A stretch of DNA of 64,000 bases from Alphaproteobacteria bacterium (GCA_037200005.1 JBBCGY010000001.1:42416-106415); one strand, 5' to 3'. Shown: positions 3,893 to 55,270, counted from the first letter of the stretch. Numbers and translations are program-made. The notes: a model not told the origin generated them from the letters alone.

Positions 3893-4380
3893 CGCTCAAC
3901 CACAAATACATCAAACAGATATTGATTTCCTTGCGGGACAATCCAGCTCCCAGCATGGACAGTTATGATCTGGCAAAAATTTGTGGCGTTGATATGAACC
4001 ATATTGATGAATTGGCGTTTGGTAAGTTTGTGACCCAACTGCGCCTGCTAAAGGATATGGCATGCATAGACTGTCCCGTGGACAATCTCGGCTTTAGCCA
4101 GAACATCAATCGCCACTGGATAATTTGTCGCACCACCTATCGGCTCTCCAGCCAGGGGCACAGTTTTCTGGACACAGAAAACAAAAATACCCTGTTCAAT
4201 AAGGGAAAGGCGTTCTTCTTTTCAGCCTTTACGGAAGCTGGAAAGCGTTTTCTGATTCAGGCAATAACGGCAATTTTTATTGTTGTGCTGGCTACCGTTG
4301 CCGCAAACGCTGGTCTTTTCAAAATTTCGAGTTCGCATGGCCTAGCTAATCTCAAAAATCCAAAAGAGCGAGGGCTATGA
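3889..4380 (+). CDS. hypothetical membrane-anchored protein (163 aa) embedded between hsdM and hsdS
   Basis: Overlaps ATGA with the hsdM stop and again with the hsdS start. It has a soluble, possibly winged-helix-like N-terminal ~100 aa and one C-terminal TM helix ([20 protein letters not shown]). GC is low. Confidence 0.55.
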
Positions 4381-7150: not shown

Positions 7151-7233
7151 GGAACAATGTGAATGGTCTGTTAGGGGCAAAAAACTCGTCACATCCAACT
7201 TATCAAGTACGTTCCTCGGAAAGAGCTACTCAC

Positions 7234-8319: not shown

Positions 8320-8503
8320 CATGGTTATTTTCTGCATGTTTATGAAGTGCTTAGGTGATATGTTGTTTTGATCGACACATCGTTCCAACATGTCGAAAAA
8401 ATCAGAAAATTTCGACATGTTGAGGCTTGTGCCCTTGTTGGTTCTAAAATGCGCTTAACCGAGGCCAAACAGGCAACGGCATCGCAGTCCAAAGAGAAAA
8501 TCG

Positions 8504-11500: not shown

Positions 11501-11680
11501 GTTGTCTCCGTTCGCAATAATGTGTCTGTTGACTGGATGCACCGCGATAGCGCCCGCGCCAAGTTGCGCATCGAAGTCAAAAAGATTCTCAAGAAATATG
11601 GCTATCCGCCAGATTTACAGGATGCAGCGGTGCAACTGGTGTTGCAGCAGGCCGAAGTTTTGGCCCCACTCTGGGCATAA
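8504..11680 (+). pseudogene. hsdR: Type I restriction endonuclease subunit HsdR, split into three ORFs by two frameshifts (~9560 and ~10140)
   Basis: Three successive overlapping ORFs (8504-9565, 9540-10163, 10133-11680) together cover a ~1058-aa HsdR: N-terminal nuclease region, DEAD-box helicase motifs ([12 protein letters not shown]) and C-terminal domain. The first shift is in a T7 homopolymer (DQLFF|NTFS). Confidence 0.85.
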
Positions 11681-11772
11681 CAATCGCTGACGGCGATCTT
11701 TGGAATTCTATGTAAGAGGCTGCAACAGGTAAGGCCAGATTATGACCGAGAGGAACGAAGATTCTTAAACAA

Positions 11773-12903
11773 TCAAAGCGCCAGCCGGGGCCGGATTAGC
11801 GACAAAGGCCGGGCAGTGGAAAGCTGGAGGCCAACAGCTTCGTTTGGAACATTGGAAAAATCGGTAATAAGCGGCAGCATGGCGTTAGGGCCAAGGGCGC
11901 GTGGTGAGGCACCTAGTTCTTTAAGAGCGGAAACAATTTCCGGTTCATTTAGCGCATGAATGCGCATAAGGGGTTGCGTAGTGTCAGGAATCCATTTCCT
12001 GCGCGAGACTTCATCGCGGCCCGTCGAGATAAGTGCCGCGACCACGTCCTTGAGTTTGTCGCCTTTCGGCAGATTGCCGTTGCTGGTGATTTGAGCGCGG
12101 ACAATCGGCTCGCCCAGGAAGGTCGAAATGGCTTCCGTAAAACTGGCGGCGATTTTCTGATTGCCGTCCTCACTTTGCCAATTCGCCAGGAACACATTTG
12201 GCAAGCTGGAGTCTTTGCCGGGTTTCGCGGCGAAGTCCGCGAGCTGGATTGCAACTCGTGAGCGGCCCGTTTCAATGGGCGCATCGCCGATAAATTCCAG
12301 AACGGCGCTATCGTCCGGCGCTCCCATCGTCGCACCGAGTTTCTTGAAGATGCCGGTCATGGCCGCATTGCCGCCCGCATATTCGCCGACGCGGCCGCGC
12401 GAGACGAGGCCATAGGGCGAATAGCCTTGTTCGCGGCTGACGGATCGCCGGATTTTCTCGTAGATAAAATGCGAGCCAAGTCCAATGCCATTCGGGTATT
12501 CCGCGCTTTTTGTGCGATTACGGAATTCCTGGGATAGTTCCGGCGACACATAGGTATCTTCGCCATAGATAGCAGGATAATGGCGGAAATCCCGGCCATT
12601 GCGTTCCGTGAGAACGGTCGGAAACTCGATTGAGCCACCGGCGAGTTTGGGGCTGCAATTTTCCCACTCCACGATGGCGAAATAAGCCTGAATTTTATTT
12701 TTCTTGATGGCCTCGATAACTTTGCCGAATTTGGCGTTATCAGCGGACGCTCCATGCGTCACGGCTTCACTTTCGACGATTCTATAAAGAATCTCATCAA
12801 GCGCCATATGATGAACGACGTCCGTACCGTTCATGCGCACGATGCTGGCTTTGGCGTTTCCCGGCAGCAGACCGGGCATATTATCGAGCGCAACGGAAGA
12901 CAT
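11773..12903 (-). CDS. uncharacterized conserved protein (376 aa), paralogue of 24000-25298
   Basis: Shares HYPAIYGEDT, YPNG(I/L)GLG, GxVSxGRVxEYxG and KxGAT motifs with the 24000-25298 ORF. It overlaps the upstream XRE regulator gene by 4 bp, so the two are co-transcribed. Confidence 0.6.
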   Translation of the reverse strand: MSSVALDNMPGLLPGNAKASIVRMNGTDVVHHMALDEILYRIVESEAVTHGASADNAKFGKVIEAIKKNKIQAYFAIVEWENCSPKLAGGSIEFPTVLTERNGRDFRHYPAIYGEDTYVSPELSQEFRNRTKSAEYPNGIGLGSHFIYEKIRRSVSREQGYSPYGLVSRGRVGEYAGGNAAMTGIFKKLGATMGAPDDSAVLEFIGDAPIETGRSRVAIQLADFAAKPGKDSSLPNVFLANWQSEDGNQKIAASFTEAISTFLGEPIVRAQITSNGNLPKGDKLKDVVAALISTGRDEVSRRKWIPDTTQPLMRIHALNEPEIVSALKELGASPRALGPNAMLPLITDFSNVPNEAVGLQLSTARPLSLIRPRLAL

Positions 12904-12905
12904 GA

Positions 12906-13556
12906 TTATATTTTCCCCTTGTCGTCGGGGATCGAAGCATTTTCCCAGAATGATTCAAATTGCTCGACATATCTTTCGGCCAAGGGCTTGGAGTGTATCG
13001 AAACGACTTCGACATTATGATCGCTGCGATGCACCGCCTGGGCGATATAGTCATTATAGACGTAATAGGGAATGAGGATTTTCGTCGTCTTATCCAGCCA
13101 GCGATATTCGCAATAGCTGGCGGAGAAATTATAGTCGCCATCCAGGATAAGAACGCGGGCGTCAAGATTCGGAAGCTTGCTCATTCTTTCCATATGCTCG
13201 GTCGCATAATCTTGCGCATAGGAAAGGGTCTTGCCGTCGCTGGAATTAAACTGGCGAATGCGTCCACCGTCTTTCAGCGTTTCGTATATATGATCGAGGA
13301 ATTGTCGGTATCCGGCTTTGCCCGAAAAAACCCTGACTTGGTTTCTCCGCATCCGAACGCCCTCGTCATCCAGGAATTCGACGCCGTGCCGGTCGAAAGC
13401 ATTGGTTATGCTGGCGATGGTCTTCTCATGCGGTTGTACCGTATCGGCCTCGATTTTGCTCACGGTCACGCGGGTAAGCCCGGCCTCCCTAGCCAAGTCT
13501 TCCGCTTTCCATTCCAGTAAGCTGCGCGCTGCGCGAATTTGACGCCCGGTAATCAT
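12906..13556 (-). CDS. XRE-family HTH transcriptional regulator with ~150-aa C-terminal domain
   Basis: N-terminal HTH_XRE (IRAARSLLEWKAEDLAREAGLTRVTVSKIE). It is the first gene of a two-gene minus-strand operon. Confidence 0.7.
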   Translation of the reverse strand: MITGRQIRAARSLLEWKAEDLAREAGLTRVTVSKIEADTVQPHEKTIASITNAFDRHGVEFLDDEGVRMRRNQVRVFSGKAGYRQFLDHIYETLKDGGRIRQFNSSDGKTLSYAQDYATEHMERMSKLPNLDARVLILDGDYNFSASYCEYRWLDKTTKILIPYYVYNDYIAQAVHRSDHNVEVVSIHSKPLAERYVEQFESFWENASIPDDKGKI

Positions 13557-13827
13557 AAAGTTAGCACTAGCATATGGTTTAGTTAAAAATAGATAACAAT
13601 CGAGATAACTAAAATTGGCAATAACATATTAATATTTGTAAAAACATGCCCTGTCAATTCAGAAACATTAGTTTCATGTAAAATTTACTGATACCATAAG
13701 TATATTCTTCTTGATTCCCAGTCGGCTTTGCATTTATGTTCCCAAATATTGGTAATGCCTAATGGTTGAAATTAGCTCGATTAAGCCATTTAAAGCGATT
13801 TTCAAGGGGAATTTCAGATGACCAATT
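13557..13827. promoter_or_regulatory. AT-rich (~30% GC) divergent promoter region between the XRE operon and the rhs regulatory cassette
   Basis: A 270-bp non-coding stretch with strongly depressed GC, flanked by divergently transcribed operons. GAAGGGGA lies ahead of the first small ORF. Confidence 0.5.
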
Positions 13828-13991
13828 CATTTAACGCTTATGTCATGCGCCAGGGCGAACCGGCCATTACCGCCATCATCGAAAATTGGGAAAGGCTTGT
13901 CGGCTTGCGGGCCGAGGCCGAAACGCCGCTTGAGCAGCGCTGGGCGGCGATGATGCATGGTTATGAGCCACAGGCAATGGCAGTCGCATGA
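13828..13991 (+). CDS. small ORF (54 aa), first of four translationally coupled genes
   Basis: Not in the ORF track because it is under 60 aa. RBS AAGGGGA. Its stop overlaps the next start as ATGA. Confidence 0.35.
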
Positions 13992-14278
13992 GCCGGAAAG
14001 CCGAAAAACCTTTCAGCCCGGTTGACGAGATGCAGCTTTCTCAGCCGATGGGCAATCGAACCGCCGAACATTTCCGCGATGCCCTGGATGATTTGGAGCA
14101 TGAGGCGACCGCGCAGGACGCAAAAATAAAGCAATTGCGCCAAGCTATTCTGCAACGCGCACAAGAACTCGACACTACCGTTTGCCAATCCTGGCTGGAT
14201 TCAGAAATCGAAAAAGCGGACCACCTCGCGTTGGAAGCGCGGCTGGAAAAACTCATCAAGTTCCTATCGGAAAAATGA
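13988..14278 (+). CDS. small hypothetical protein (96 aa), helical/charged
   Basis: ATGA-coupled to both neighbours. Confidence 0.5.
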   Translation: MSRKAEKPFSPVDEMQLSQPMGNRTAEHFRDALDDLEHEATAQDAKIKQLRQAILQRAQELDTTVCQSWLDSEIEKADHLALEARLEKLIKFLSEK

Positions 14279-14493
14279 TGATGGCGAATTTTCATGAACG
14301 CCCCATGACATATAAAAAGCTCGTCGCTCGTTACGGCCATGACATGGCTTTCGATTTACTCGTCACTATCGAGAGCCTTGCGAAGATTAAGCACGACATC
14401 ATCGAGATCAACGAAGAAATTCGTCTGCAACGCGCGCTGGAAGTTTTGGACGAGGCGGAATTCGGACAGGCAGATAAAGGCGGGGTCAAATGA
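14275..14493 (+). CDS. small hypothetical protein (72 aa)
   Basis: Starts MMMANF. ATGA-coupled on both sides. Confidence 0.5.
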   Translation: MMMANFHERPMTYKKLVARYGHDMAFDLLVTIESLAKIKHDIIEINEEIRLQRALEVLDEAEFGQADKGGVK

Positions 14494-14738
14494 TTTCCGG
14501 TAATAACATACCCAATAAAAAGCTTGCGCCGCGTGAAATCGAAGTCATGACCTTAACGGCGCGTGGCAAGACGACCACCGAAATTGCAATGCTTCTCTCG
14601 ATTGCCGAGGATACAGTTAAGACTCACATCAAACGATCCTGCCAGAAATTGAACGCGGCCAATAAAACACACGCCGTTGCTCTCGTTATGGCTCGCGGCA
14701 TAATAGAATGTTCCTGTTGTCACCCGAAAGGGGGATAG
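14490..14738 (+). CDS. stand-alone LuxR/GerE-type HTH transcriptional regulator (82 aa)
   Basis: LuxR-type HTH signature (LAPREIEVMTLTARGKTTTEIAMLLSIAEDTVKTHIKRSCQKL). It lies directly upstream of rhs. Confidence 0.7.
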   Translation: MISGNNIPNKKLAPREIEVMTLTARGKTTTEIAMLLSIAEDTVKTHIKRSCQKLNAANKTHAVALVMARGIIECSCCHPKGG

Positions 14739-14820: not shown

Positions 14821-17800
14821 ATGGTGGCACCTGCGAAGAAATTTCACGAAGCGAACGGCGAACTCACCAATGAGGCAGGGGCAACGCGACCGCCGCTCTC
14901 GAGGAACAGCCTCTGGCGGACACTGCGCCCCGGGATCTCGGTGGGAGTAAGCCTCGCGGCAGTCGTCGCTTGCGAAAGCGGCGAACCCAACGCTTCAAAT
15001 GACAACATCGTTTCGATTTCCCAAGCGATAGGCTCTGCGACAATCTATAGCTTGCCTACCAATGTTTTGATGCCCAATGCCATCAATAATCAAAATCTCA
15101 TTGTGGGCCAGGGTCTGCCTTCGATCTATGATGCCAACACGGGAACATTTAGTAGCCTTGAAGTAAACCAGCCTTCGGGGGCGGTCACTTCCTATGCAAT
15201 TAGCAATGCCGGTCACGTTGTCGGCAATTCATTCAATGTTGGGCCGGTTTCCAATTCGGCGTTCATTTCACAGGGCGGACATTTGTCCGATCTATACGCC
15301 GGCAACAACAACGGGGTGACCAGCGTCGCTTACGGCGTCAACAATTATGGCCAAGTCGTCGGCACGATGCCGGTGACGGTCAACGATGCGAACAATAGTC
15401 CACATCCTTTCACGCATGCGTTCTCGTGGCAGGGCAGCGTTACAGACCTTACACCGAACTACTATGGAAATTCAGCCGCCTATGGCATCAACGATGCTGG
15501 GCAGATCGTGGGAACGATAGGAACTGCGGGGGTCAAGTGGCAGGGCGGATCGTCAAGCACGCTGCCGAGCGGCACCAGCACGCCCGCCATGATCAACAAT
15601 GTCGGTCAGATCGTCGGGACATATAGTTCAGGCGGTTCGTCGCACGCTTTCCTTGTGCAGAGCGGCACCCTGACCGATCTCGGAGCCATACAGGGAAGCA
15701 CACCTGTGAGGATCAACAACAAAGGACAAGTTACGGGCGGCTTCTACAACACGGGTGCCGGACAATATTACCCGAGCGTCTGGCAGAATGGCGTCGTGGT
15801 TACGATTCCCACTCTGTCGGGCATTCCCGCAGGCTGGTCTATCACGTCGATAAACGGCATCAATGACAGCGGAACCGTCGTAGGGCAAGGCACGCTTTCG
15901 GGTTCTTCACGGGGTTTTTACCTAACTTCGCCGCAGCTTCTGAACTACGCCATTGCCGGAAAGCCCTACGATCCGAAAGCGAATGGTGGTGAGGATTCGG
16001 CGTCAACCCCGACAGACGATCTATGTGGAACTCATGGCATGTGTGTGCCCAACGCGCAATTGCTGTCGGCCAGCTTGAATTTGAACGATACGCCGATTGG
16101 GTATCAGCCGCCCAAAGGGCCACCAGCCTATATCCGGCTTACATATAATCATCGTGACAGTGTCGCGCCCAGCAGCACTTCCTCGCATGTTGGGCCAAAC
16201 TGGACTCTGAATGTCATTTCTTACATTCAGGATGATCCGGCCAGCCCGGGCCAGAGCGTCACGCGCAACGTGGCGGGCGGCGGTATCGTCGACTACACTT
16301 TTGAGGCAGGGCAGTTCAATACCACCACGGGTGCATTCGGGCCGGAGAAGCAAACCGGGGCGATCTTGAAACGGACTCCCGCGACAGGGTTCAGCGCCAG
16401 TGCTTCCTATGAGCTTTCCTTTCCCGATGGGGCCAAGCAAATATTCTCCTACCCGGATGGAAGCTTCAATTATCCGCGCCGCGCATTCCTGACGGATATC
16501 GTTGATGCCTCAGGCCAGGGCCTGCATTTTGGCTACAATTATCTTCAAGGAACTTTCGGCGCGATCAATTGCACGCCGGGATGTCCGCAACTGCAATCAG
16601 TTTCTGATGCTAATTTCCGTGCAACAAACTTCGTCTACGGTGACGCATCTAATGTCTTGCGCGTGACGCGGATTAATGACCCGTTCGGGCGTCACGCCGA
16701 TTTAGCTTATGATGGCAGCGGACGGCTTTCGTCAATCACGGATGTGATCGGCATTCAATCGTCTTTCACCTATGACACCACCGACCCTACTTTCATCAAA
16801 AAGCTAACGACACCCTATGGCGATAGCAATTTCGTCTTTGGGCAAGATACGGCGACGGATCGTCGTTGGCTCACACTCTCCGATGCCGTGGGCAATACGG
16901 AAAAAGTGGAATACCGGGGCAGCAGCGCCAGCGGCATAGCGGCGTGCGACAAAAACACGAGCGATGCGTCGTGCAGTGTCTCGACCTCCGTGCCGACAGG
17001 CATGCCTAACGGCATCAATAACGCCGATCTCGACAAGCGCAACACCTTTGTCTGGAACAAATGGATGTATGCGAATGGCTATGGCAGCGATTACACGCAG
17101 GCGAATGTTACCCATTGGCTCAAGGACGGTGCGGGCAATCCCGTGGGGATTCCGGAAAGCGTCAAGCCGCTGTACGAATCCCGCATTTGGTATAATTATC
17201 CCGGCCAGAACGATCCTAGCACCCCAGGAACCCTGTCTGTGCCGAGGGCGACGGGCCGCGTGATCACCGATCCGCTTTACGGGCAAGCGCCGCAGAATCA
17301 GGTTTACCAAAGTCAATATAACAGCCTCGGCAAGCCCACCTTGACCGTCGATCCCTACAAGGTTTCAGGCAACAACAATGAAGGCCGAACTACACGCATG
17401 ACCTATGATGCCTCCGGCGTCGATCTTTTGACGGTGGAACAGAAAACCGGCAGCGGAACGCCGGGGACATGGGCGACGATTGCTTCCTACGTCTATACCG
17501 ATCCGACAGAACAGCCCACATCGATCCACAAACCGATCCGCTATACCGACGCGGCGGGGCAAACTTATAAATTCAAATACAATGGCGACGGCCAATTGAT
17601 CTATGCCGCCAATCCCTACAACGATACGACGTATAATGAATATCATCCGTCCGGCAAGCTCCTGCGGACGACCATGCCTGTGCCGAGCGTAAACTGGAAT
17701 ACCATCGATTATGGAACCGATATTAACGGCGCGCCGACGGGGGCGAGCAACAGCAGCGCCCTAAGGGACACCGCCATTACCTACGACTCCGCCGATCGTC

Positions 17801-20202
17801 CGTATGACGTGACCGACCGGATGGGTCTGGTGAAGCGTTTCGGCTACGACAATCTCGACCGGGTAACGCGGGTGGATTACGCCCCCGGCACGGCGGGCAC
17901 GACCTATGAGACGAACACCTATACCAACCTCGACCTGACATCGCACCGCGACCGGCTTGGCCGGGTTAGCACCGATGTTTACACGGCGAACCGGCAGCTG
18001 TGGCTGAGCTTCAATGCTTCGGGAACGCGGCGGGGCTTCACCTATTACCCGAACGGCGCGCTACAAGGCTACTACGACGAGAACGACCATCCTACAATCT
18101 ACGGCATCGACGGCCAGGGACGCGCCAACGCCGTCGTCTATCCCAATGGCAACCAGACGAATTACTACTACGATGATGGCGGGCGGATGCGCACCATTGT
18201 CGATCTCGACGGCTCGAACCAGCGCTGGCGGAACATTAAATATAACGTCGATAATAGCGTCCATATCCGCGACTATACCAACCCGGCAAATCCGTCCGAT
18301 CCCGTGGTTCTGGCGACGACAACCGCGACCTTCACCTACGATCCATGGTTCCCCGGACAAATGACTTCAATGGCCGATGCCAGCGGAACGACCAACTATA
18401 CATACAAAACCGTAGGCACCGTCGGCGCCTTACAACTCGCGACCGAAAATCCGCCGACGGTAAGCGGCGACGCGGATAAAATCACCTACACCTATGACCA
18501 GAAGGGACGGCTCGCCTCGCGCCAGATCGGTATCGGCACGGCGAGCGTGCTGCCGCAGGAAAGCTGGGTGCGCGACACCTATGGCCGCATTAACAGGCAC
18601 ATCATTCCCGACGGCAACCTGTTCTATTACGACTTCAACGGCGCGAGCAATCAGGTGACAATGCGCGCGTTTCGCAATCAGGCGCTGACGGAGATCGACC
18701 CGCTGAATACGCGCACGATGATGAGCTACGACACGGCGGCGAACGACTCGCGGCTGCTGACGATCAACAACCCGCCCTACGACAACAGCGCGCCCGGCGC
18801 GCGGGACTTCACCCTCAATTGGGGATCGTCGCCCGCCAATCCGTACGTTCCGGCGACGATCACCGACTCCGCTGGAGGCCCCGGCGGGGCGTGGGGACAG
18901 CGGGTGTGGACGATGGGCTATGACGCGCGCGACCGGCTGACCTCGGCGGTCGCCGCCGACCGCAGCTATTCGTTTACCCTGGACGCGCCGGGCAACGCGA
19001 CGAGCTTCACCAGCACGCACTATCCGAGCGGCGGGCTGTATAGCTTTAACTCGACCTACAACACGTCGAACCAGATGACGGTGGCGAACGGCAACGCGCT
19101 GATCTACGACCCCTACGGCAACCTCGTCACCCACACGAACTACCGCAGCTTCAAGTACGACGCCGAGAACCGCCTGATCGAGGTCGACTTCCCCGCCGCG
19201 CCCGCCGACAAGGTTGAGATGCAATATGACGGTCTTGGTCGCCGCACGCAGATCAAATCCACCATCGGCGGCGTCGTCACGACGCGGAACCTGCAATGGT
19301 GCGCCCAGACGACCTCGCCGCCGTTCCAGGGCGCGGCGGAAGAGATATGCGTCGAGCGCGACGCATCGGGCGGCATGCAGCGCATGGTCTATCCCGAGGG
19401 CGAATATCGCGCCAACGGCGGCCGGTACTTTTATGAACGCGACCAGACCGGCAACATCCGCGACGTGATGAAGATGGCGGCGGGATTGACGACCGCCGCG
19501 CGCGATAGCTCCTTCAACTACACGCCTTATGGCGGCGTCGACGGCAAAGACGGCACTGCCGAGCCGCTGCAGCAGTTCGCGGGACTGCTGTATGAGAAGA
19601 ACAGCAACCTGTTCCTCTCCCGCACCCGCGCCTATGCCCCATGGATCGGCAGATGGCTCCAGCGCGATCCGATTGGGCAGAATGGGGGGAGTAATGTTTA
19701 TGAGTATGCGGGGGCGAGTCCGATTAACAAGATTGATCCGAGCGGGTTGCAGGGGGTGCGACCTGGGTTAATAGAAACGATGCGACCTACAATAGGAGTG
19801 CCACCAGCAGCGGGGATCAACGAGGGGGCAGGAAATTACGCCGATTATCTTCAAGAAAATGGAGAAATGATGGGTGATCTAGCCACCCTTTATAGGGCCA
19901 CTAGCGCGGCGGTTGCCGGTGCGAGCAACCAATCAATGCGAGAGGATATTGAAAAAGCAAAAGTATGCACATCGTTTGGAAACAGCATGTCGGCGGATCA
20001 GCCGTTATGGTGCGGGCCTGGCGGATGCGCGGATAGCGTCAGGCAGCAGTGGCTGGATGCGACCGGCGGCTTAGTGTATCCACAAATCATCGAGTCTTTC
20101 AAAAAGAGGTTTGAACCGGCTCCCTCGCGGCTTGTGTCGACGCCGATGCGTGGCAATGACTTCGGTAATTCGGTTTTATTCCCTAATGTGGGCCCAGGTT
20201 AG
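14821..20202 (+). CDS. Rhs-family polymorphic toxin (1793 aa): N-terminal HAF repeats, RHS/YD repeats, RHS core, DPxGL cleavage motif, ~150-aa C-terminal toxin domain
   Basis: Repeated NxxGQ(V/I)VG and HAF motifs in the first ~350 aa. Many YDxxGR(L/R) repeats. RHS core YFYERDQTGNIRDVM. IDPSGLQ (PxxxxDPxGL) at ~19740, followed by a unique tail. A lipobox-like VVAC lies near the N-terminus. Confidence 0.9.
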   Translation: MVAPAKKFHEANGELTNEAGATRPPLSRNSLWRTLRPGISVGVSLAAVVACESGEPNASNDNIVSISQAIGSATIYSLPTNVLMPNAINNQNLIVGQGLPSIYDANTGTFSSLEVNQPSGAVTSYAISNAGHVVGNSFNVGPVSNSAFISQGGHLSDLYAGNNNGVTSVAYGVNNYGQVVGTMPVTVNDANNSPHPFTHAFSWQGSVTDLTPNYYGNSAAYGINDAGQIVGTIGTAGVKWQGGSSSTLPSGTSTPAMINNVGQIVGTYSSGGSSHAFLVQSGTLTDLGAIQGSTPVRINNKGQVTGGFYNTGAGQYYPSVWQNGVVVTIPTLSGIPAGWSITSINGINDSGTVVGQGTLSGSSRGFYLTSPQLLNYAIAGKPYDPKANGGEDSASTPTDDLCGTHGMCVPNAQLLSASLNLNDTPIGYQPPKGPPAYIRLTYNHRDSVAPSSTSSHVGPNWTLNVISYIQDDPASPGQSVTRNVAGGGIVDYTFEAGQFNTTTGAFGPEKQTGAILKRTPATGFSASASYELSFPDGAKQIFSYPDGSFNYPRRAFLTDIVDASGQGLHFGYNYLQGTFGAINCTPGCPQLQSVSDANFRATNFVYGDASNVLRVTRINDPFGRHADLAYDGSGRLSSITDVIGIQSSFTYDTTDPTFIKKLTTPYGDSNFVFGQDTATDRRWLTLSDAVGNTEKVEYRGSSASGIAACDKNTSDASCSVSTSVPTGMPNGINNADLDKRNTFVWNKWMYANGYGSDYTQANVTHWLKDGAGNPVGIPESVKPLYESRIWYNYPGQNDPSTPGTLSVPRATGRVITDPLYGQAPQNQVYQSQYNSLGKPTLTVDPYKVSGNNNEGRTTRMTYDASGVDLLTVEQKTGSGTPGTWATIASYVYTDPTEQPTSIHKPIRYTDAAGQTYKFKYNGDGQLIYAANPYNDTTYNEYHPSGKLLRTTMPVPSVNWNTIDYGTDINGAPTGASNSSALRDTAITYDSADRPYDVTDRMGLVKRFGYDNLDRVTRVDYAPGTAGTTYETNTYTNLDLTSHRDRLGRVSTDVYTANRQLWLSFNASGTRRGFTYYPNGALQGYYDENDHPTIYGIDGQGRANAVVYPNGNQTNYYYDDGGRMRTIVDLDGSNQRWRNIKYNVDNSVHIRDYTNPANPSDPVVLATTTATFTYDPWFPGQMTSMADASGTTNYTYKTVGTVGALQLATENPPTVSGDADKITYTYDQKGRLASRQIGIGTASVLPQESWVRDTYGRINRHIIPDGNLFYYDFNGASNQVTMRAFRNQALTEIDPLNTRTMMSYDTAANDSRLLTINNPPYDNSAPGARDFTLNWGSSPANPYVPATITDSAGGPGGAWGQRVWTMGYDARDRLTSAVAADRSYSFTLDAPGNATSFTSTHYPSGGLYSFNSTYNTSNQMTVANGNALIYDPYGNLVTHTNYRSFKYDAENRLIEVDFPAAPADKVEMQYDGLGRRTQIKSTIGGVVTTRNLQWCAQTTSPPFQGAAEEICVERDASGGMQRMVYPEGEYRANGGRYFYERDQTGNIRDVMKMAAGLTTAARDSSFNYTPYGGVDGKDGTAEPLQQFAGLLYEKNSNLFLSRTRAYAPWIGRWLQRDPIGQNGGSNVYEYAGASPINKIDPSGLQGVRPGLIETMRPTIGVPPAAGINEGAGNYADYLQENGEMMGDLATLYRATSAAVAGASNQSMREDIEKAKVCTSFGNSMSADQPLWCGPGGCADSVRQQWLDATGGLVYPQIIESFKKRFEPAPSRLVSTPMRGNDFGNSVLFPNVGPG
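18996..19750. repeat. direct repeat copy 1 (~755 bp, ~98% identical to 21505-22258): rhs core-end segment
   Basis: Near-identical nucleotide and protein sequence (GNATSFTSTHYPSGGLYSF...PINKIDPSGL) in both copies. The antisense ORF-track entries are duplicated too (19140-19385 = 21651-21896). Confidence 0.85.
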
Positions 20203-20207
20203 TCCTA

Positions 20208-21478
20208 TGAAAAAGTTTACTCTATTGCTTGTCGCGCTTTGTAGTCTGACAATGTTACCGGCTCATGCCGCTGACCAAGACTCCAAACCACCCGTCATTG
20301 ATATTCCTGCCACGCGAAAAGAGGCGGAGTCTGGAGATGCTCGGGCTCAATATAATCTGGGCATAGCTTATCTCAACGGTTACGGGGTGAAGAAAAATAA
20401 AGATGAAGCTATTGAATGGATTTACAAAGCAGGGAAGAACAATGATGCCCTCGCAATATATTTCTTGGGCAGCGCATATCATGATGGCGACCTTTTGCCA
20501 CAAGACTACGCCAAGGCTATGAAGTGGTATCACAGGTCCGATGAATTATACGGCAGTCCCCTTGCGCAGAATATGCTTGGCGTGATGCACGAAAACGGTC
20601 AGGGGGCTCCACAGAATTATGAAGAAGCGGCTAGGTGGTATCGCAAAGCTGCCGAGAATATTTACGCACCGGCTCAATCCCATCTTGGATTCCTATACTA
20701 CGCTGGACGCGGCGTTCCTAAGGACGATCAAAAGGCTCTATATTGGCTTAAGAAAGCAGCCATACAAAACGATGCGCCAGCAAAGCTTATGCTAGGCATT
20801 ATGCACTATAAAGGCGAAGGAGTGGAAAAGAATTACGTTAAAGCTGTCAGCTATTTTCGCGAAGCCGCAGACGTCGGAATATCGATAGCTGAACGATATT
20901 TGGGAAATATGTATTACCACGGCGAAGGCGTTTCCAAGGATGAAGCCCAGGCTGTGTCTTGGTGGCGCAAAGCCGCCGAACAAGGGGATAGGGAGTCGGA
21001 AAAGATCATAGGTGGTATGTACTATTATGGCACAGGAGTGTCGAAGGATTTTTCCCAAGCCGTTTTATGGTGGCAAAAAGCTGCGGAAAAGGGTGATGTC
21101 GATGCTCAATGCAACTTGGCGAAAGCTTACTATCATGGAGAAGGTATAGGAAAAGATGAAACTCAAGCTGTGTTATGGTGGCGGAGGGCCGCGGCACAAG
21201 GACATGGAGAATCCCTCCTTTATTTAGGACAAGCGTATTTTAGTAGCATAGGCGTATCGCAAGATGATGTGCAGGCTTATATATGGCTAAGCTTGGCGGC
21301 TACAAGAAATCAGTCGTCAGCGGTTGCAACACTCACGGAACTCGAAAAGTCCATGACGCCGGAACAAATCGCTGAAGCCAGAAAACGCGTGGCAGAATGG
21401 AAACCCAAGCCTGAGCCAAAGCCTGCCCCAATAGGGCCAATACCCGAAATTCTAAAAGAAGTCCGTGAAGATTTATGA
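20208..21478 (+). CDS. Sel1-repeat protein with signal peptide (candidate periplasmic immunity protein for Rhs-CT1)
   Basis: Signal peptide MKKFTLLLVALCSLTMLPAHA. At least 9 Sel1 repeats (AQYNLGIAYLNGYGVKKNKDEAIEWIYKAG...). Sits immediately downstream of the rhs toxin tip. GC ~45% versus ~62% for the rhs body. Confidence 0.8.
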
Positions 21479-22668
21479 TCTCGACTTCGAGGATGCATTT
21501 GGGCAATGCGACGAGCTTCACCAGCACGCACTATCCGAGCGGCGGGCTGTATAGCTTTAACTCGACCTACAACACGTCGAACCAGATGACGGTGGCGAAC
21601 GGCAACGCGCTGATCTACGACCCCTACGGCAACCTCGTCACCCACACGAACTACCGCAGCTTCAAGTACGACGCCGAGAATCGCCTGATCGAGGTCGACT
21701 TCCCCGCCGCGCCCGCCGACAAGGTTGAGATGCAATATGACGGTCTTGGCCGCCGCACGCAGATCAAATCCACCATCGGGGGCGTCGTCACGACGCGGAA
21801 TCTGCAATGGTGCGCCCAGACGACCTCGCCGCCGTTCCAGGGCGCGGCGGAAGAGATATGCGTCGAGCGCGACGCATCGGGCGGCATGCAGCGCATGGTC
21901 TATCCCGAGGGCGAATATCGCGCCAACGGCGACCGGTACTTTTATGAACGCGACCAGACCGGCAACATCCGCGACGTGATGAAGATGGCGGCGGGATTGA
22001 CGACCGCCGCGCGCGACAGCTCCTTCAACTACACGCCTTATGGCGGCGTCGACGGCAGAGACGGCACCGCCGAGCCGCTGCAGCAGTTCGCGGGACTGCT
22101 GTATGAGAAGAACAGCAACCTGTTCCTCTCCCGCACCCGCGCCTACGCCCCATGGATCGGCAGATGGCTCCAGCGCGATCCGATTGGGCAGAATGGCGGC
22201 GCGAATGTTTATGAATATGCGGGGGCGAGTCCGATTAACAAGATTGATCCGAGCGGGCTTCAAAGCATCCAGAATGCGGATGACTGGATAAAACAGAGAA
22301 ATGCCCCTGCTCAGCCGTCAAATAGTATTTGGAGTGAGATCCTAGATAAAATCAGAGAACCTGTGTCTAGAAATGAAGCCATTAGTGAGATTACAAATTT
22401 CCGTCAATCTGGAGAGGCCCAAACTGAAGCACAGATAGCTAGAATGCTCATGGGTTTACCCGTCGAACCTGATTTTTCTGTTGCTATAGGAGGGGCTGAA
22501 GGTGAGCAAGATCTTGGCAGAGCGATTATGTCGGTAGCGCGCGAGATTTTGCGCCGCCCTGCGGAGCAGTCGTGCCCAATAGTTCAGAGAAAAGTCTTCG
22601 GTCAATCCTTGCCACCAAGTGATTTTGGTGACAAGAATCTCCCACTGCCATCTATATTAACCCTTTAA
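21475..22668 (+). CDS. orphan rhs C-terminal cassette: duplicated core-end plus an alternative 136-aa CT toxin domain
   Basis: The first 260 aa match Rhs residues ~1390-1650, including DPSGLQ. A different tail follows. Its start overlaps the Sel1 gene stop (ATGA), and it lacks the N-terminal 1400 aa. Confidence 0.8.
   Translation: MISTSRMHLGNATSFTSTHYPSGGLYSFNSTYNTSNQMTVANGNALIYDPYGNLVTHTNYRSFKYDAENRLIEVDFPAAPADKVEMQYDGLGRRTQIKSTIGGVVTTRNLQWCAQTTSPPFQGAAEEICVERDASGGMQRMVYPEGEYRANGDRYFYERDQTGNIRDVMKMAAGLTTAARDSSFNYTPYGGVDGRDGTAEPLQQFAGLLYEKNSNLFLSRTRAYAPWIGRWLQRDPIGQNGGANVYEYAGASPINKIDPSGLQSIQNADDWIKQRNAPAQPSNSIWSEILDKIREPVSRNEAISEITNFRQSGEAQTEAQIARMLMGLPVEPDFSVAIGGAEGEQDLGRAIMSVAREILRRPAEQSCPIVQRKVFGQSLPPSDFGDKNLPLPSILTL
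21505..22258. repeat. direct repeat copy 2 of the rhs core-end segment
   Basis: See copy 1. The offset between copies is 2509 bp. Confidence 0.85.
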
Positions 22669-22700
22669 AGAATATGAGTGGAATTGAGGGAGTTAATGCA

Positions 22701-23489
22701 ATGAAGAAGATAATTATTATTACGGCATTTGCTTTGATGGTCGCATCAGTTCAAGCTTATGCTGCCGTCCAGGATGAAAAAGCCGACAGTTTGTTAGGGC
22801 ATCGCCTGTCCGAACAATTACGGAAAACAGAAGCGCAGACAACTCTTGCTGCGGGAAAAGAGCTATTTAAAACAGGCGAAGGTCTTTCTAAGGATAATGT
22901 CGATGCAGTAAAGCTATTTCGCGTAGCTGCCAATCTTGGCTCGATGGAGGCACAAACAATTCTCGGCGCTGCATACCTTAGTGGCGATGGAGTGCAAAAA
23001 GATATTCCTGAAGCTTTAAAATGGATACAAAAATCTGCCGCCCAAGGAGACGCCAAGGCTCAACATTTATTGGGTGTATTGTATCATGAAGGATCAGACG
23101 TAAAAAAAGACAATGTGAAATCGTTAAAATGGATACGGAAAGCAGCGGAGCAAGGTTTGCCATCGGCACAATTTAGTCTTGGCACTATGCTTTCTAAAGG
23201 ATATGGAACACACCGAGATGAAACTTCAGCGATGGAATGGTTTCATAAATCCGCAAACCAAGGCTATGCTAAGGCCCAAATTATGCTCGGAATTGCATAT
23301 CACCTAGGTAAAGATATATCTAAAGACGATATTCTAGCTGATCAATGGCTGATATTGGCCGGGGAAAAAGAGGCACGTGATGATTTGGAAAAATCCATGA
23401 CCCCCGAACAAATCGCCGAAGCTATAAACCGCGCGGCGGAATGGAAGCCGAAACCACCAACCAAGCCCGATCCTGAATCCAAACCGTAG
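22701..23489 (+). CDS. Sel1-repeat protein with signal peptide (candidate immunity for orphan CT2)
   Basis: RBS GAGGGAG. Signal peptide MKKIIIITAFALMVASVQAYA. About 5 Sel1 repeats. The C-terminal KSMTPEQIAEA...EWKPKP tail is shared with the first Sel1 protein. Confidence 0.8.
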   Translation: MKKIIIITAFALMVASVQAYAAVQDEKADSLLGHRLSEQLRKTEAQTTLAAGKELFKTGEGLSKDNVDAVKLFRVAANLGSMEAQTILGAAYLSGDGVQKDIPEALKWIQKSAAQGDAKAQHLLGVLYHEGSDVKKDNVKSLKWIRKAAEQGLPSAQFSLGTMLSKGYGTHRDETSAMEWFHKSANQGYAKAQIMLGIAYHLGKDISKDDILADQWLILAGEKEARDDLEKSMTPEQIAEAINRAAEWKPKPPTKPDPESKP

Positions 23490-23513: not shown

Positions 23514-23882
23514 ATGAAATTTATCCGATTTTATGTCGTTGCATCTCTTGTTCTTGGAGTTTTGCAGATTGCTGACGGCATCGTTCTTGTTTCGTATGGC
23601 ACAATAGCAATTAGTAATATTTTCTCTTTGCTCGAAGCTATATGGGTTGTTGTCTCGATGATAGCGCTTTGGTTTTTCATAAAAAGCAAATTTCCAATAT
23701 TCATTCCGACGACATATATTTTATACAATGTTGCTGGCTGGGGATACGGGGCCTATTTGTTTTCACAATTGCAAAATTCTGACCAAATAATCGACGTTCC
23801 TCTTTGGTTTAAAATTGCGGGTATTTGTTTTGGCATCTATTTTGCCTGCGTAAATTTCATATTGTATAAACGAAAACTGTGA
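23514..23882 (+). CDS. small 4-TM membrane protein (122 aa), possible orphan immunity protein
   Basis: Four hydrophobic helices. Very AT-rich. It is the last gene of the rhs immunity array. Confidence 0.5.
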   Translation: MKFIRFYVVASLVLGVLQIADGIVLVSYGTIAISNIFSLLEAIWVVVSMIALWFFIKSKFPIFIPTTYILYNVAGWGYGAYLFSQLQNSDQIIDVPLWFKIAGICFGIYFACVNFILYKRKL

Positions 23883-23999: not shown

Positions 24000-25298
24000 A
24001 TGAATCAGGCATTTAACTCCGATCCCTATAAGCGCCTGCCCGGCGGCATCCGGGCGGCGGTTTTGCCGATGCAGGGGGCCGACCTTGTGCATCAAGCCAC
24101 GCTCGGCGCGGCGCTTGAGCATATCATCGGTCATGAGGCTGCGGTTCATGAAGCGGCTTTCCAAAGCCAGCATTTTCACAAGATTTTGAAGGCAAGCGAG
24201 AAAGGCGAAATCAACGTCCTTTTTCTTATGGCCGCGATGCATACATGTTTGCCGAAATTGGCGGGCGCGGCGATTGAACTTCCGACCGTCATTACGAAAT
24301 GGCAAGGCAACGAGTTTAAGCACTATCCCGCCATCTATGGCGAAGATACATGCGTTCTGCCGGAATTCTCCAAAACCTTCCGCGAAAAGACGGCGGGCGC
24401 GCTTTATCCTAATGGCCTGGGCCTTGGCACATGGTTCGCCAAAGAACGGATCGAAGGATCGGTATCGGGCCGCTCTGGGTTCGCGCCTCTCGGCATGGTG
24501 TCCCAAGGCCGTGTTTGTGAATATTCCGGGCATAACGGGCCGATGATTGGACTCTTGAACAAATTCGGTGCAACGACTGCGCCGGACGCGAGCGCAGTCC
24601 TCGAACTCGACGGCCTCACTCCCACGATGAAAAGCCGCTGGCAAGTGCCGGTCGATACTGAAGCCTTGGCCGATCAGAACGGCAAGCCCCTCGACAATAT
24701 TTTCGTAACGAGATGGTCAGGCGAAAGCGGCAAGCAACAAATCGCCGCAAGCTTTACGAAAACCATCTCCACCTTTACCGGCGATCCTATTGTGCGCGTT
24801 CAGCTAACGAGCAACGGCAATCTTCCGAATGGCGATATGCTGCAAAATGTACTATCTTCACTGCTGGCTGCCGGTCACGACGAAATCCGCGAGCGGAAAT
24901 GGGCCATAGCAGGCGAATTAAAAAGTGTTGCTAGCAACCGAAGCCCGATCATCCCGCTCCTTGCTTCCCGGCAGCAGCAAATGGCTGCGCTTCTGTCCGC
25001 AGGGCGAGATGAAATTCTATCCCGGCGTATCGGCATGGATGATTTAAGCCATATTTTCGGCGGCGCGGTTCCGACAATGCGGATTCATGCGCTCAGGAAG
25101 CCGGAAATAGTCGCGGCCTTGAAAGACTTAGGTGCACAACCCCGTATTCTCGGCCCCCACGTCATGCTGCCCGCGATTATGGACTTCGCCAATATGCCGC
25201 AGGAGGCGCTTAATTTCGATCTGCCCCCGGCGAGGCCGCTGAATACGGTCAATCATAGAGGCGCAACCAGCACGCCGCTTTTCTCTCTGGCGGCATAA
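24000..25298 (+). CDS. uncharacterized conserved protein (432 aa), paralogue of 11773-12903 with an internal duplication/insert
   Basis: About 55% identity to the 376-aa protein over the shared core (HYPAIYGEDTCVLPEF...YPNGLGLG...GMVSQGRVCEYSG). Two similar segments (LLAAGHDEIRERKWA / LLSAGRDEILSRRIG) indicate an internal repeat. Confidence 0.6.
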   Translation: MNQAFNSDPYKRLPGGIRAAVLPMQGADLVHQATLGAALEHIIGHEAAVHEAAFQSQHFHKILKASEKGEINVLFLMAAMHTCLPKLAGAAIELPTVITKWQGNEFKHYPAIYGEDTCVLPEFSKTFREKTAGALYPNGLGLGTWFAKERIEGSVSGRSGFAPLGMVSQGRVCEYSGHNGPMIGLLNKFGATTAPDASAVLELDGLTPTMKSRWQVPVDTEALADQNGKPLDNIFVTRWSGESGKQQIAASFTKTISTFTGDPIVRVQLTSNGNLPNGDMLQNVLSSLLAAGHDEIRERKWAIAGELKSVASNRSPIIPLLASRQQQMAALLSAGRDEILSRRIGMDDLSHIFGGAVPTMRIHALRKPEIVAALKDLGAQPRILGPHVMLPAIMDFANMPQEALNFDLPPARPLNTVNHRGATSTPLFSLAA

Positions 25299-25584: not shown

Positions 25585-25776
25585 ATGAGCCAGGAAGCAT
25601 ATCGCGTGAAAGAATTCTGCAACCGCTACGCCATTTCAAAAGCCAGCTTCTACCGGGAAACAGCGGCGAAGCGGCTGCATATCCTAAAACGTGGCCGTAC
25701 AACGCTCGTTGCCCGCACCGAAGCCGAACGCTGGTTTGAAAGCCTTGGCCAAGGCCAGCCGCAGCAATCAGCCTGA
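25585..25776 (+). CDS. AlpA/Xis-like phage-type transcriptional regulator (63 aa)
   Basis: RBS AAGGGAGGAAG. AlpA-like HTH (FCNRYAISKASFYRETAAKRLHILKRGRTTLVARTEAERW). Immediately upstream of the integrase. Confidence 0.7.
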   Translation: MSQEAYRVKEFCNRYAISKASFYRETAAKRLHILKRGRTTLVARTEAERWFESLGQGQPQQSA

Positions 25777-25843
25777 TCGCATTCAATATCCCGAATATTT
25801 CCAAAGCCATTTTTCGTCAATCTTATTCTCATGGAGGCATGTC

Positions 25844-27031
25844 ATGCGCCATACGGGACATATTCGCCAGCGTTCAGAAGGGAGTTTCGAGCTTCGCTAT
25901 AGCATCGGCACCGATCCGGTCACGGGAAAATGGAAAGTCAAAACCGTCACCGTTAAGGGAACGCGCAAAGCTGCCGAGAAAGAATTGCGCCGCATACTCG
26001 ATGCAATCGATGACAATGATTATGTCGAACCCAATAAAATCACTACCCGTGATTTTTTGACACAATGGCTTGAAACAATGCGTTCCCAGATAACCCCCAA
26101 ATCCTATGAAAGCTACGCTGAAATAGTCGATAACTTCCTTATCCCAACTCTTGGCGGTCATATTCTGGCGAAACTTGCTCCGGCTGTTATCCAAAAAGCC
26201 TACAATGGATGGGAAGCTGGTGGCCGCAGGGATAAAAAGGCGGGCGGGCTGGCGGCGCGTTCCCGTCTCTATATCCACCGCATCCTTAAATCGGCACTCA
26301 AACATGCCGTGCAAATACAGCTAATCGCCCGCAATCCCGCCGACGCGGTTAAAGCGCCGCGCGTCAAGAAAGCCGCCATAACTACATTGACCGTGGATCA
26401 ATCGGCGGCGCTGCTCGATGCCCTGTCCGGCAAGCCGCTTTATTGGCCTGTGTTGCTTGCCCTAACAACGGGCATGCGCCGGGGTGAAATTCTGGCGCTT
26501 CGCTGGAAGAATATCGACTTTGAAAAGAAAACTGTTCGCGTCGTCGAAAGTCTAGAGCAAACCAACACAGGCATTCGCTTCAAGGCTCCGAAAACGGAAC
26601 GGAGTCGTGCCGTCATGTTGCCGGATTATGCCGTTGAAGAACTGCGGAGACTGAAAAAAGAACAGGAGAAAAAATTGTCGGAATCAGGAATCGGCCAAAC
26701 CACTGAAACGCTGGTTTGCGGTCGCTATGACGGCGAACCGCTATGGCCTACCTCACTTACGCATGAATTCGTGAAGGCCATGAAGAAACTGCCGAAACTG
26801 CCGCGCGCCAGATTCCATGATTTGCGCCATTCCCATGCCACGCAACTCCTGACAGCAGGAATCCATCCCAAAATCGCGCAAGAACGGCTGGGACATACCA
26901 CGATTACGACAACCCTAGACCTCTATTCCCATGCGACGGACACCATGCAAGACGAGGCTGCATCAAAGCTCGACAATGCCTTCCGTTCTGCTATAAAGGC
27001 CCGTTCCGACCAAGCGCCACGACTAGGATAA
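25844..27031 (+). CDS. tyrosine-type site-specific recombinase/integrase (phage integrase family)
   Basis: Catalytic region RFHDLRHSHATQLLTAGIHPKIAQERLGHTTITTTLDLYSH (R...HxxR...Y). The most likely start is MRHTGHIRQRSEG rather than the extended ORF from 25691. Confidence 0.9.
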   Translation: MRHTGHIRQRSEGSFELRYSIGTDPVTGKWKVKTVTVKGTRKAAEKELRRILDAIDDNDYVEPNKITTRDFLTQWLETMRSQITPKSYESYAEIVDNFLIPTLGGHILAKLAPAVIQKAYNGWEAGGRRDKKAGGLAARSRLYIHRILKSALKHAVQIQLIARNPADAVKAPRVKKAAITTLTVDQSAALLDALSGKPLYWPVLLALTTGMRRGEILALRWKNIDFEKKTVRVVESLEQTNTGIRFKAPKTERSRAVMLPDYAVEELRRLKKEQEKKLSESGIGQTTETLVCGRYDGEPLWPTSLTHEFVKAMKKLPKLPRARFHDLRHSHATQLLTAGIHPKIAQERLGHTTITTTLDLYSHATDTMQDEAASKLDNAFRSAIKARSDQAPRLG

Positions 27032-27111
27032 ATTGGTTCTGTAGCAATTTCTGTAGCAAAATCGATTTTGCTTCCGGTAGGAATACTCTAAGTGTATGTT
27101 TTTGCTGATGT

Positions 27112-27187
27112 GACCTTGTAGCTCAGCCGGTAGAGCATCTGACTTTTAATCAGGGGGTCGCGGGTTCGAACCCCGCCGAGGTCACCA
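27112..27187 (+). tRNA. tRNA-Lys (anticodon UUU) with encoded CCA
   Basis: Cloverleaf: acceptor gaccttg/cgaggtc; D-arm gctc-agccggta-gagc; anticodon arm tctga-cTTTTaa-tcagg; T-arm gcggg-ttcgaac-cccgc; discriminator a; CCA. Confidence 0.9.
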
Positions 27188-47304: not shown

Positions 47305-47325
47305 TGTCCGTTCTCCATTCCCTGA

Positions 47326-51009: not shown

Positions 51010-51015
51010 AATATC

Positions 51016-51855: not shown

Positions 51856-52129
51856 CCTACACTCCTTCGACCAGCCAGGGATCGTCCGATCGGTCAAACT
51901 TCTGATAAAGCCCCCAGGATCGGAGGCCCCATACCTAATCTGGGAAGTCGGTTCATCATCGGCGAATAGGGTTAAGTTCCCGTAAACATAGGCTTTATGA
52001 ACCTCGTGCCATTAACGAATGGTTATCGCCCTGCGGCAAGGCGTCAGTTTTGAAATCGGGCATGGAGGGGGATTGGCCTTCATGTCGGCCTAGACGCGGC
52101 GCGGCGCGGCGGCAGGGCGACAAAAAGCG

Positions 52130-55219: not shown

Positions 55220-55270
55220 CCAAGGCTAATTGAGGCGCGAACCTTATGACTTAATTGTTAACATTGGCTT

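Follow-up and report, generated by a model that had tools for sequence, protein, structure and literature searches.

A two-module Rhs array with uncharacterised C-terminal domains, each followed by a candidate Sel1-repeat immunity gene, in an alphaproteobacterium

A 64,000-nucleotide stretch of DNA from Alphaproteobacteria bacterium (GCA_037200005.1 JBBCGY010000001.1:42416-106415), referred to here in its entirety as the window, contains on the plus strand a two-module Rhs array. A main rhs gene that ends in the variable C-terminal (CT) domain CT1 is followed by a Sel1-repeat gene (Sel1-1), by a copy of the rhs core that ends in a second variable domain, CT2, and by a second Sel1-repeat gene (Sel1-2) (Table 1). 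The initial annotation of this DNA had described Rhs C-terminal domains that are each paired with a signal-peptide Sel1 gene, and all of these elements are present within a few bases of the positions it gave. The locus is a classical Rhs polymorphic-toxin array, standard apart from its parts, on an integrase island of an uncultured alphaproteobacterium that is represented by a metagenome-assembled genome (NCBI proteins MEJ0061671-675). We propose, with moderate confidence, that the Rhs protein is a Sec-exported carrier of its C-terminal tips, that the exported Sel1 proteins are the cognate immunity proteins and bind the tips in the periplasm, and that the tips act outside the cytoplasm.

Organisation of the array and its Sel1-repeat partners

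The two modules are delimited by a duplication of the rhs core. Nucleotides (nt) 21501-22260 are a copy of nt 18990-19749 with 97.6% identity (18 mismatches in 760 nt), and the identity ends sharply on both sides, on the 3' side exactly after the motif DPSGL. Three of the 18 mismatches alter an amino acid; because the other 15 are synonymous, the duplicated core appears to be under coding constraint. The DPIG...DPSGL cleavage motif is kept in the orphan copy as well as in the main gene. Delimited by the repeat boundaries, module 1 corresponds to nt 19750-21500 and comprises CT1 and Sel1-1, with no other credible gene. The Sel1-1 ATG lies 4 nt past the rhs stop codon, and the Sel1-1 stop codon overlaps the ATG of the orphan fragment (ATGA). 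The Sel1-2 ATG follows the CT2 stop codon after 32 nt. A promoter and terminator scan returned sites that are no commoner than in shuffled sequence.

The guanine plus cytosine (GC) content is 56.9% in the window and 57.8% in the Rhs body (70% at third codon positions), compared with 54.0% in CT1, 47.8% in Sel1-1, 46.7% in CT2 and 44.5% in Sel1-2. Each tip-plus-partner module is thus of foreign composition and looks imported, at 44-54% GC versus 58% for the Rhs body. The values of the two partner genes agree with the approximately 45% that the initial annotation had assigned to them. The length of 150 residues that it had given for CT1 is also correct, whereas CT2 comprises 135 rather than 136 residues.

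Table 1 Features of the Rhs array, numbered from the first nucleotide of the window (aa, amino acids; ORF, open reading frame; TM, transmembrane).
Feature	Position (nt)	Strand	Description
Rhs ORF	14821-20202	+	1793 aa
Rhs delivery part	14821-19749	+	lipoprotein-type signal, HAF repeats, YD/RHS-repeat shell, Rhs-associated core domain
CT1	19750-20202 (coding to 20199)	+	150 aa, variable tip of the main Rhs protein, presumed toxin
Sel1-1	20207-21478	+	423 aa, 9 Sel1 repeats, putative Sec signal peptide, candidate cognate immunity protein of CT1
Orphan rhs core fragment	21475-22260	+	part of ORF 21475-22668, 397 aa
CT2	22261-22668 (coding to 22665)	+	135 aa, variable tip of the orphan module, presumed second toxin
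Sel1-2	22701-23489	+	262 aa, 4-5 Sel1 repeats, putative Sec signal peptide, candidate cognate immunity protein of CT2
4-TM ORF	23514-23882	+	122 aa, ~4 predicted TM segments

Sel1-1 matches the Pfam Sel1 profile with nine repeats (E=4e-86, 280.7 bits) and Sel1-2 matches it with four (E=2e-40, 136.4 bits), the Pfam gathering cut-off being 30.7. The two proteins are 40% identical. The N-termini of Sel1-1 (MKKFTLLLVALCSLTMLPAHA, followed by AD) and of Sel1-2 (MKKIIIITAFALMVASVQAYA, followed by AV) both read as Sec signal peptides, as judged by eye from a KK n-region, a hydrophobic core and an AxA cleavage site followed by A. The best start of Sel1-2 is at 22701, where the ATG is preceded by the ribosome-binding site GAGGGAG; the NCBI annotation lists this protein as a tetratricopeptide repeat (TPR) protein (MEJ0061674.1). 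A search of all six-frame ORFs of the 64-kb window with Sel1-2 yielded no Sel1 proteins other than these two, both in immunity slots. Because the only two Sel1 ORFs of the window each fill such a slot, the pairing of CT domains with Sel1 genes is unlikely to be due to chance.

In polymorphic toxin systems such as Rhs and contact-dependent growth inhibition (CDI), the mobile unit must bring its own immunity gene. Sel1-1 and Sel1-2 each fill the immunity slot of their own CT module, in line with the initial annotation; the module boundaries are set by the core repeat, and module 1 offers no other plausible gene. The tight coupling of the genes, with the 4-nt gap between rhs and Sel1-1 and the ATGA overlap between Sel1-1 and the orphan fragment, is consistent with this position. 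A Sel1-type partner also recurs with unrelated tips, in module 1, in module 2 and in the relative P0003 described below. Experimental precedents for immunity conferred by Sel1-like-repeat (SLR) proteins are Tli5b, which acts on PldB (as cited in PMC13133936), and Sel1E, which acts on VgrG4 (PMC7108748), and Sel1-repeat genes are also found beside Acinetobacter Rhs-1 genes with undetermined toxins (PMC6838775). Sel1-1 and Sel1-2 are therefore most likely the cognate immunity proteins of CT1 and CT2.

The scan of GTDB representative genomes found no close relative of the full Rhs protein. The relatives P0003, P0004 and P0005 belong to one HAF-Rhs lineage with it, P0004 and P0005 sharing 34-36% identity over approximately 90% of the length; the tips of all three are also unassignable. 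P0003, which is 36% identical, carries its own, different tip followed by a 325-aa, N-terminally TM-anchored Sel1-like protein. This protein is related to Sel1-1 by tblastn (E=1e-8) and by hhalign (probability 93.5%), and reaches only E=0.004 against the Pfam Sel1 profile. Genes for Imm26 and DUF4259 lie further downstream in the P0003 locus and therefore mark the lineage as a bacterial conflict system. The ORFs downstream of the rhs genes of P0004 (90 aa) and P0005 (121 aa, DUF7945) lack signal peptides. The distant HAF-Rhs proteins P0012 and P0037 are uninformative, with no same-strand gene called downstream. A viral scan with the Rhs-core alignment yielded a single distant locus (L091), whose Rhs is not followed by a Sel1-like gene; it does not bear on the Sel1 question.

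Two further features of the related loci were observed. Directly upstream of the rhs gene in the three closest HAF-Rhs relatives is a gene for a 177-224-aa signal-peptide protein with a conserved C-terminus (L002 9051-9725, L004 1856-2389, L005 1758-2360), possibly a dedicated accessory factor. This protein is missing from the window, where its place is taken by four small overlapping ORFs (13818-14738), the last with a LuxR/GerE-type helix-turn-helix (HTH). At the P0004 locus, the signal peptide and the first HAF repeat are encoded by a separate 76-aa ORF (L002 9774-10004) and the rhs gene by 10001-14692, pointing to a frameshift or to an interruption of the N-terminus in this protein.

The tips and their carrier

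Both tips are acidic and soluble, with a pI of 4.9, no TM segment and a maximum 19-residue hydropathy below 1.0. CT1 is rich in glycine (12.7%) and proline (8%) and contains the sequence VCTSFGNS...WCGPGGC; it has three cysteines, which could form disulfides outside the cytoplasm, and no histidine. CT2 contains one cysteine and likewise no histidine. Neither tip matches Pfam at E<=10, NCBIfam at E<=0.1 or PDB chain sequences at E<=10. When 1.84 billion cluster representatives were searched exhaustively with CT1 (phmmer), the parent protein of CT1 and a spurious low-complexity repeat protein were the only hits, and tblastn of CT1 against plasmids gave only noise (E~0.5). For CT2, no relative was found by a word-indexed protein search, a pattern-seeded metagenome scan, a viral-contig scan or tblastn against plasmids and phages. 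The search for relatives was exhaustive for CT1 only; CT2 was searched less thoroughly, and the evidence that it lacks relatives is weaker. The word-indexed search, which returned nothing for CT1 either, is also weak for short queries, as it missed P0001, a protein that is in the database and contains CT1 at 100% identity. Neither tip shows similarity to the other, to any of the fetched loci or to the tips of the relatives.

Structure prediction, which the initial annotation had suggested as a check, yielded unusable single-sequence AF2 models that are mostly helical, with pLDDT (predicted local distance difference test) scores of 35 for CT1 and 48 for CT2; single-sequence prediction is expected to fail in the absence of an alignment. 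A Foldseek search with the CT2 model returned nothing at E<4. The description of the tips as uncharacterised thus stands, with no Pfam, NCBIfam or PDB-sequence match for either and with CT1 alone among 1.84 billion representatives.

The WCGPGGC sequence of CT1 was considered as a thioredoxin-like (WCGPC) or deaminase-like (PCxxC) motif and rejected, as the spacing is wrong, an H/CxE motif is lacking and no profile matches.

The amino acid composition narrows the possible activities. Histidine is required by HNH and EndoVII nucleases, by Cys-His amidases and peptidases, by Ser-Asp-His lipases and by HxK phospholipase D, and these classes are excluded because CT1 and CT2 contain none. A colicin-like or TM pore former is argued against by the lack of a hydrophobic segment. 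Chemistry based on glutamate or aspartate, for example lysozyme-like, or non-enzymatic binding is possible. CT1 and CT2 are presumed to be toxins.

The carrier is recognised by RHS and YD repeats (PF05593 RHS_repeat in Pfam, E=3e-24; TIGR01643 YD_repeat in NCBIfam, E=1e-22) and by the Rhs-associated core domain (TIGR03696 in NCBIfam, residues 1567-1643). The core end, DPIG...PINKIDPSGL, corresponds to nt 19519-19749 and closes with PINKIDPSGL at nt 19735-19749, the canonical PxxxxDPxGL self-cleavage motif. The ATG at 14821 is preceded, 8 nt upstream, by a good ribosome-binding site (AAGGGGAG). From this start, the N-terminus has a hydrophobic stretch up to a lipobox-like VVAC, with Cys51 encoded at nt 14971-14973, and HAF repeats follow at approximately residues 60-400 (TIGR02913 in NCBIfam, E=4e-15). 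The NCBI annotation (P0001) places the start 154 codons later. The long start agrees with the similarity to the P0005 locus, which extends from residue 6 of the Rhs ORF and there reaches upstream of the called start of the P0005 gene. A signal peptide followed by HAF repeats is also found at the N-termini of P0003, P0005, P0012 and P0037. The Rhs protein is thus predicted to be Sec-exported and is probably lipid-anchored.

No match to PAAR, VgrG or DUF4150 was found in the Rhs protein, in which Pfam and NCBIfam detect only HAF and RHS domains. Neighbours typical of a type VI secretion system (T6SS), namely vgrG, eag and DUF1795 genes, were not found; the neighbours examined are restriction-modification (R-M), Fic, HTH and LuxR genes. 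At the level of the locus, the Rhs protein lacks the features of a T6SS-delivered Rhs effector. With a lipoprotein-type signal peptide on the Rhs, the toxin would cross the producer's own periplasm. A description of the route by which a HAF-Rhs lipoprotein without T6SS parts leaves a Gram-negative cell and arrives at a target was not found in the searchable literature.

This bears on how the signal peptides of the partners should be read. Sec export of the Rhs protein could by itself demand periplasmic immunity, for protection of the producer, which is a counter-argument to placing the action of the tips by the location of the partners. However, because the partners of P0004 and P0005 lack signal peptides, the compartment of the partner varies by module and is not forced by Sec export of the Rhs. 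With the partner compartment specific to the module, the signal peptide is readable as a clue to the site of tip action, with the caveat that most bacterial Sel1 proteins appear to be exported. The earlier interpretation is supported in part, for the uncharacterised tips and for the Sel1 genes in immunity slots; its further proposal of periplasmic immunity and periplasm-acting tips is plausible.

Alternatives and proposed mechanism

Several observations weigh against a dedicated immunity role for the Sel1 proteins or against active tips. By sequence, Sel1-1 and Sel1-2 are generic Sel1 proteins rather than members of a dedicated Rhs-immunity family. Their top PDB matches are generic Sel1 proteins (1e-87 to 1e-97), and the match to PA5087 (5JKP) is weak for Sel1-2 (E=1e-6), with none listed for Sel1-1. 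The 547 Sel1 relatives found in GTDB representative genomes are at best 38-47% identical (Verrucomicrobiota, Acidobacteriota, Bacteroidota and others), and relatives in many phyla, at about 40-46% identity, are about as similar to Sel1-1 and Sel1-2 as these are to each other. An Rhs lies near only one of the 80 Sel1-homologue loci fetched, and there the two are convergently oriented. The tips have no detected relatives, are rich in glycine and proline and have very low fold confidence, and could be disordered or decayed. Finally, the 122-aa ORF that begins 24 nt past Sel1-2 is a rival candidate for immunity to CT2.

This small ORF encodes a predicted membrane protein with a pI of 9.2 and has a GC content of 36%. 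Its Kyte-Doolittle profile peaks above 1.6 in three to four stretches, corresponding to approximately four TM segments, and the protein matches no Pfam or NCBIfam family. The ORF is missing from the NCBI annotation but is called on contig L001 of an independent Logan assembly, which contains the same stretch of CT2, Sel1-2, the TM ORF, a 432-aa ORF and the integrase. The encoded protein may provide alternative or additional immunity to CT2, may be an orphan immunity protein, or may be unrelated.

These observations allow the Sel1 proteins to be viewed as periplasmic helpers (chaperones, adaptors or stabilisers) or as co-transferred cargo, with true immunity residing elsewhere, for CT2 in the four-TM protein. 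Sel1 and TPR solenoids are general protein-binding scaffolds, and the Acinetobacter survey lists Sel1 neighbours without assigning them a role (PMC6838775). The generic sequences of Sel1-1 and Sel1-2 and the lack of enrichment beside Rhs (1/80 loci) would fit such a role, as would the position of the 4-TM ORF, 24 nt after Sel1-2 and even lower in GC, since membrane immunity proteins are known for membrane-acting toxins. Against this, module 1 contains no other possible immunity ORF, and a module without immunity would be self-harming; the arrangement is seen three times with three unrelated tips; and module 1 includes nothing equivalent to the TM ORF. We therefore regard a helper or cargo role as unlikely.

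Alternatively, CT1, CT2 or both may be decayed or non-toxic tails, either recombination remnants or disordered extensions, of a weapon that is no longer active. The lack of a CT1 homologue among the 1.84 billion representatives, the very low confidence of both AF2 models and the Gly/Pro-rich, motif-poor and histidine-free composition of both tips are compatible with decay, as is the absence of an export and shell part from the orphan module. Gene decay does occur locally, since the neighbouring hsdR gene of the island is broken up into three ORFs. However, both tips are intact ORFs that end just before an intact, tightly coupled partner gene, and the mostly synonymous differences in the core copy (15/18) point to coding constraint. 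Lineage-restricted tips are common in polymorphic toxins, the tips of P0003-P0005 being equally unassignable, and the failure of single-sequence AF2 is expected. Decay of the tips thus seems quite improbable.

That the system targets eukaryotic cells or mediates adhesion in a teneurin- or TcC-like manner, with the exported Sel1 proteins as host-interaction factors, is very improbable. In favour of this reading, the N-terminus is a secreted HAF-repeat domain rather than a T6SS adaptor, and host-interaction proteins such as c5321 of E. coli (4BWR) and the cysteine-rich proteins of Helicobacter (1OUV, 1KLX) are among the best PDB matches of the Sel1 proteins; the organism itself is known only as an uncultured alphaproteobacterium. 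Against it, the spare CT-plus-partner module behind a core repeat and the Imm26 and DUF4259 genes of a relative are hallmarks of inter-bacterial polymorphic toxins, and no TcA-, TcB- or SpvB-type partner genes lie beside the Rhs.

Under the preferred reading, in which the Sel1 proteins are periplasmic immunity proteins, the Rhs protein would be exported by Sec and probably lipidated, and its YD shell would fold round the tip, either in the periplasm or on the surface. The core motif DPIG...DPSGL would then self-cleave and free the tip inside the shell, and the HAF domain would presumably mediate contact with the target. In the periplasm, the surface of the Sel1 solenoid would bind and sequester the cognate tip, which would protect the producer during Rhs maturation as well as sibling cells that receive the toxin. 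If the exported Sel1 proteins sequester the tips in the periplasm, the site of action of CT1 and CT2 is probably extracytoplasmic: the envelope, the peptidoglycan or the periplasmic face of the inner membrane. Judging from their composition, their chemistry would not involve histidine and they would not be classical hydrophobic pore formers. Recombination across the 760-bp repeat could replace CT1/Sel1-1 with CT2/Sel1-2 on the main gene.

The island and comparison with known systems

The array lies within a mobile island that also encodes type I R-M proteins, the hsdR gene being split, as well as a Fic protein, an AlpA-like protein and, beside tRNA-Lys, a tyrosine integrase. The R-M genes occupy 2714-11680 and encode HsdM, HsdS and an HsdR in three consecutive ORFs (8504-9565, 9540-10163 and 10133-11680); embedded in this region are a Fic/SoFic-like gene (7159-8319) and an unassigned 517-aa ORF (5597-7150). 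Downstream of the array (region 25585-27187) are an AlpA-like excisionase ORF and the tyrosine integrase (25691-27031), separated by 80 nt from tRNA-Lys(ttt) (27112-27187). A position of the integrase 5' of the tRNA gene is unusual for integration into a tRNA 3' end, and no tRNA-derived direct repeat (att) of at least 13 nt that would delimit the island was found elsewhere in the window.

The Rhs array is bracketed by two inverted paralogues that are 44% identical, one of 376 aa (11773-12903, minus strand) and one of 432 aa (24000-25298, plus strand), which belong to no Pfam, NCBIfam or PADLOC family. The left, 376-aa paralogue adjoins an XRE-type HTH gene (12906-13556), and a matching pair of an HTH gene and a gene of unassigned function (49% and 26% identical) is located just upstream of the HAF-Rhs P0005 (L005 2-1593). 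Approximately 25 kb away, on the minus strand (46636-56713), is a cluster encoding a GspE/PilB-like ATPase, a GspF/PilC-like platform protein, a prepilin-type protein and a PilN-family (type IVb pilus) secretin. The cluster resembles a type IVb pilus or type II secretion system and has no established connection with the Rhs.

Classical Rhs CT/immunity arrays with orphan modules are found in Enterobacteria, Dickeya and Salmonella. The present array shares with them the YD shell, the PxxxxDPxGL core end, the variable tip, the immunity slot downstream and a displaced module with core homology. In contrast to these arrays, it has a lipoprotein-type signal and HAF repeats in place of a PAAR, VgrG or T6SS N-terminus, its candidate immunity proteins are large Sel1 solenoids with predicted export rather than small cytoplasmic proteins, and its tips fall into no described family. 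Bacillus subtilis WapA and the teneurin-type YD proteins are exported by Sec, combine an N-terminal domain for binding outside the cell with a variable toxin at the C-terminus, and do not depend on a T6SS. The WapA tips are tRNases with cytoplasmic immunity proteins, and the host is Gram-positive. The present Rhs resembles these proteins as a predicted Sec-exported YD-repeat protein with a variable tip and no T6SS, and differs in its Gram-negative host, so that an outer membrane has to be crossed.

PldB of Pseudomonas aeruginosa acts in the periplasm. According to the account cited in PMC13133936, PldB (Tle5b), which has three SLR immunity proteins, PA5086-PA5088 (Tli5b), is neutralised by a neighbour-encoded SLR protein, whose SLR 'saucer' partly wraps the toxin domain. 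Here too, a Sel1-repeat protein is encoded beside each presumed toxin, with gaps of 4 nt and 32 nt. PldB is a large phospholipase D delivered by the T6SS, whereas the present tips comprise 135-150 residues, lack the histidine of phospholipase D chemistry and are carried by a predicted Sec-exported Rhs. In sequence, Sel1-1 and Sel1-2 resemble known SLR immunity proteins no further than the repeat consensus, the match to 5JKP being marginal.

In Klebsiella pneumoniae, one specific protein of the Sel1 array downstream of VgrG4, Sel1E, was shown to be the antitoxin (PMC7108748). The toxin in that system is the DUF2345 region of the VgrG spike, which acts via reactive oxygen species, and the localisation of Sel1E was inconclusive (PMC7108748). 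The VgrG4 locus thus shares with the present array the Sel1 genes downstream of a toxin, and differs in that it involves no Rhs. The Acinetobacter Rhs-1 loci likewise have an Rhs with an undetermined toxin and a neighbouring Sel1-repeat gene, but there the Rhs is linked to VgrG and the T6SS, and the role of the Sel1 protein was neither assigned nor tested (PMC6838775).

If confirmed, the proposed functions would add two toxin domains without detectable relatives, and would widen the range of Sel1-repeat immunity, which so far covers a VgrG toxin and a T6SS phospholipase, to include Rhs tips. The occurrence within one Rhs lineage of partners predicted to be exported and of partners without signal peptides offers a natural comparison for the compartment in which each tip acts. 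Unassignable Rhs tips and periplasmic immunity would be no surprise to a specialist; the type of carrier and the recurrent Sel1 partners are the notable elements. The carrier, with its lipoprotein signal and HAF repeats and without T6SS parts, is the more useful lead of the locus. A bolder reading, which we consider doubtful, is that HAF-repeat Rhs lipoproteins constitute a Sec-dependent, T6SS-independent delivery class of Gram-negative bacteria, represented here by two histidine-free envelope toxins of new fold that are each blocked by a dedicated exported Sel1 'saucer'. If this were true, Sel1 solenoids would be an evolvable scaffold on which immunity to periplasm-acting Rhs tips recurs.

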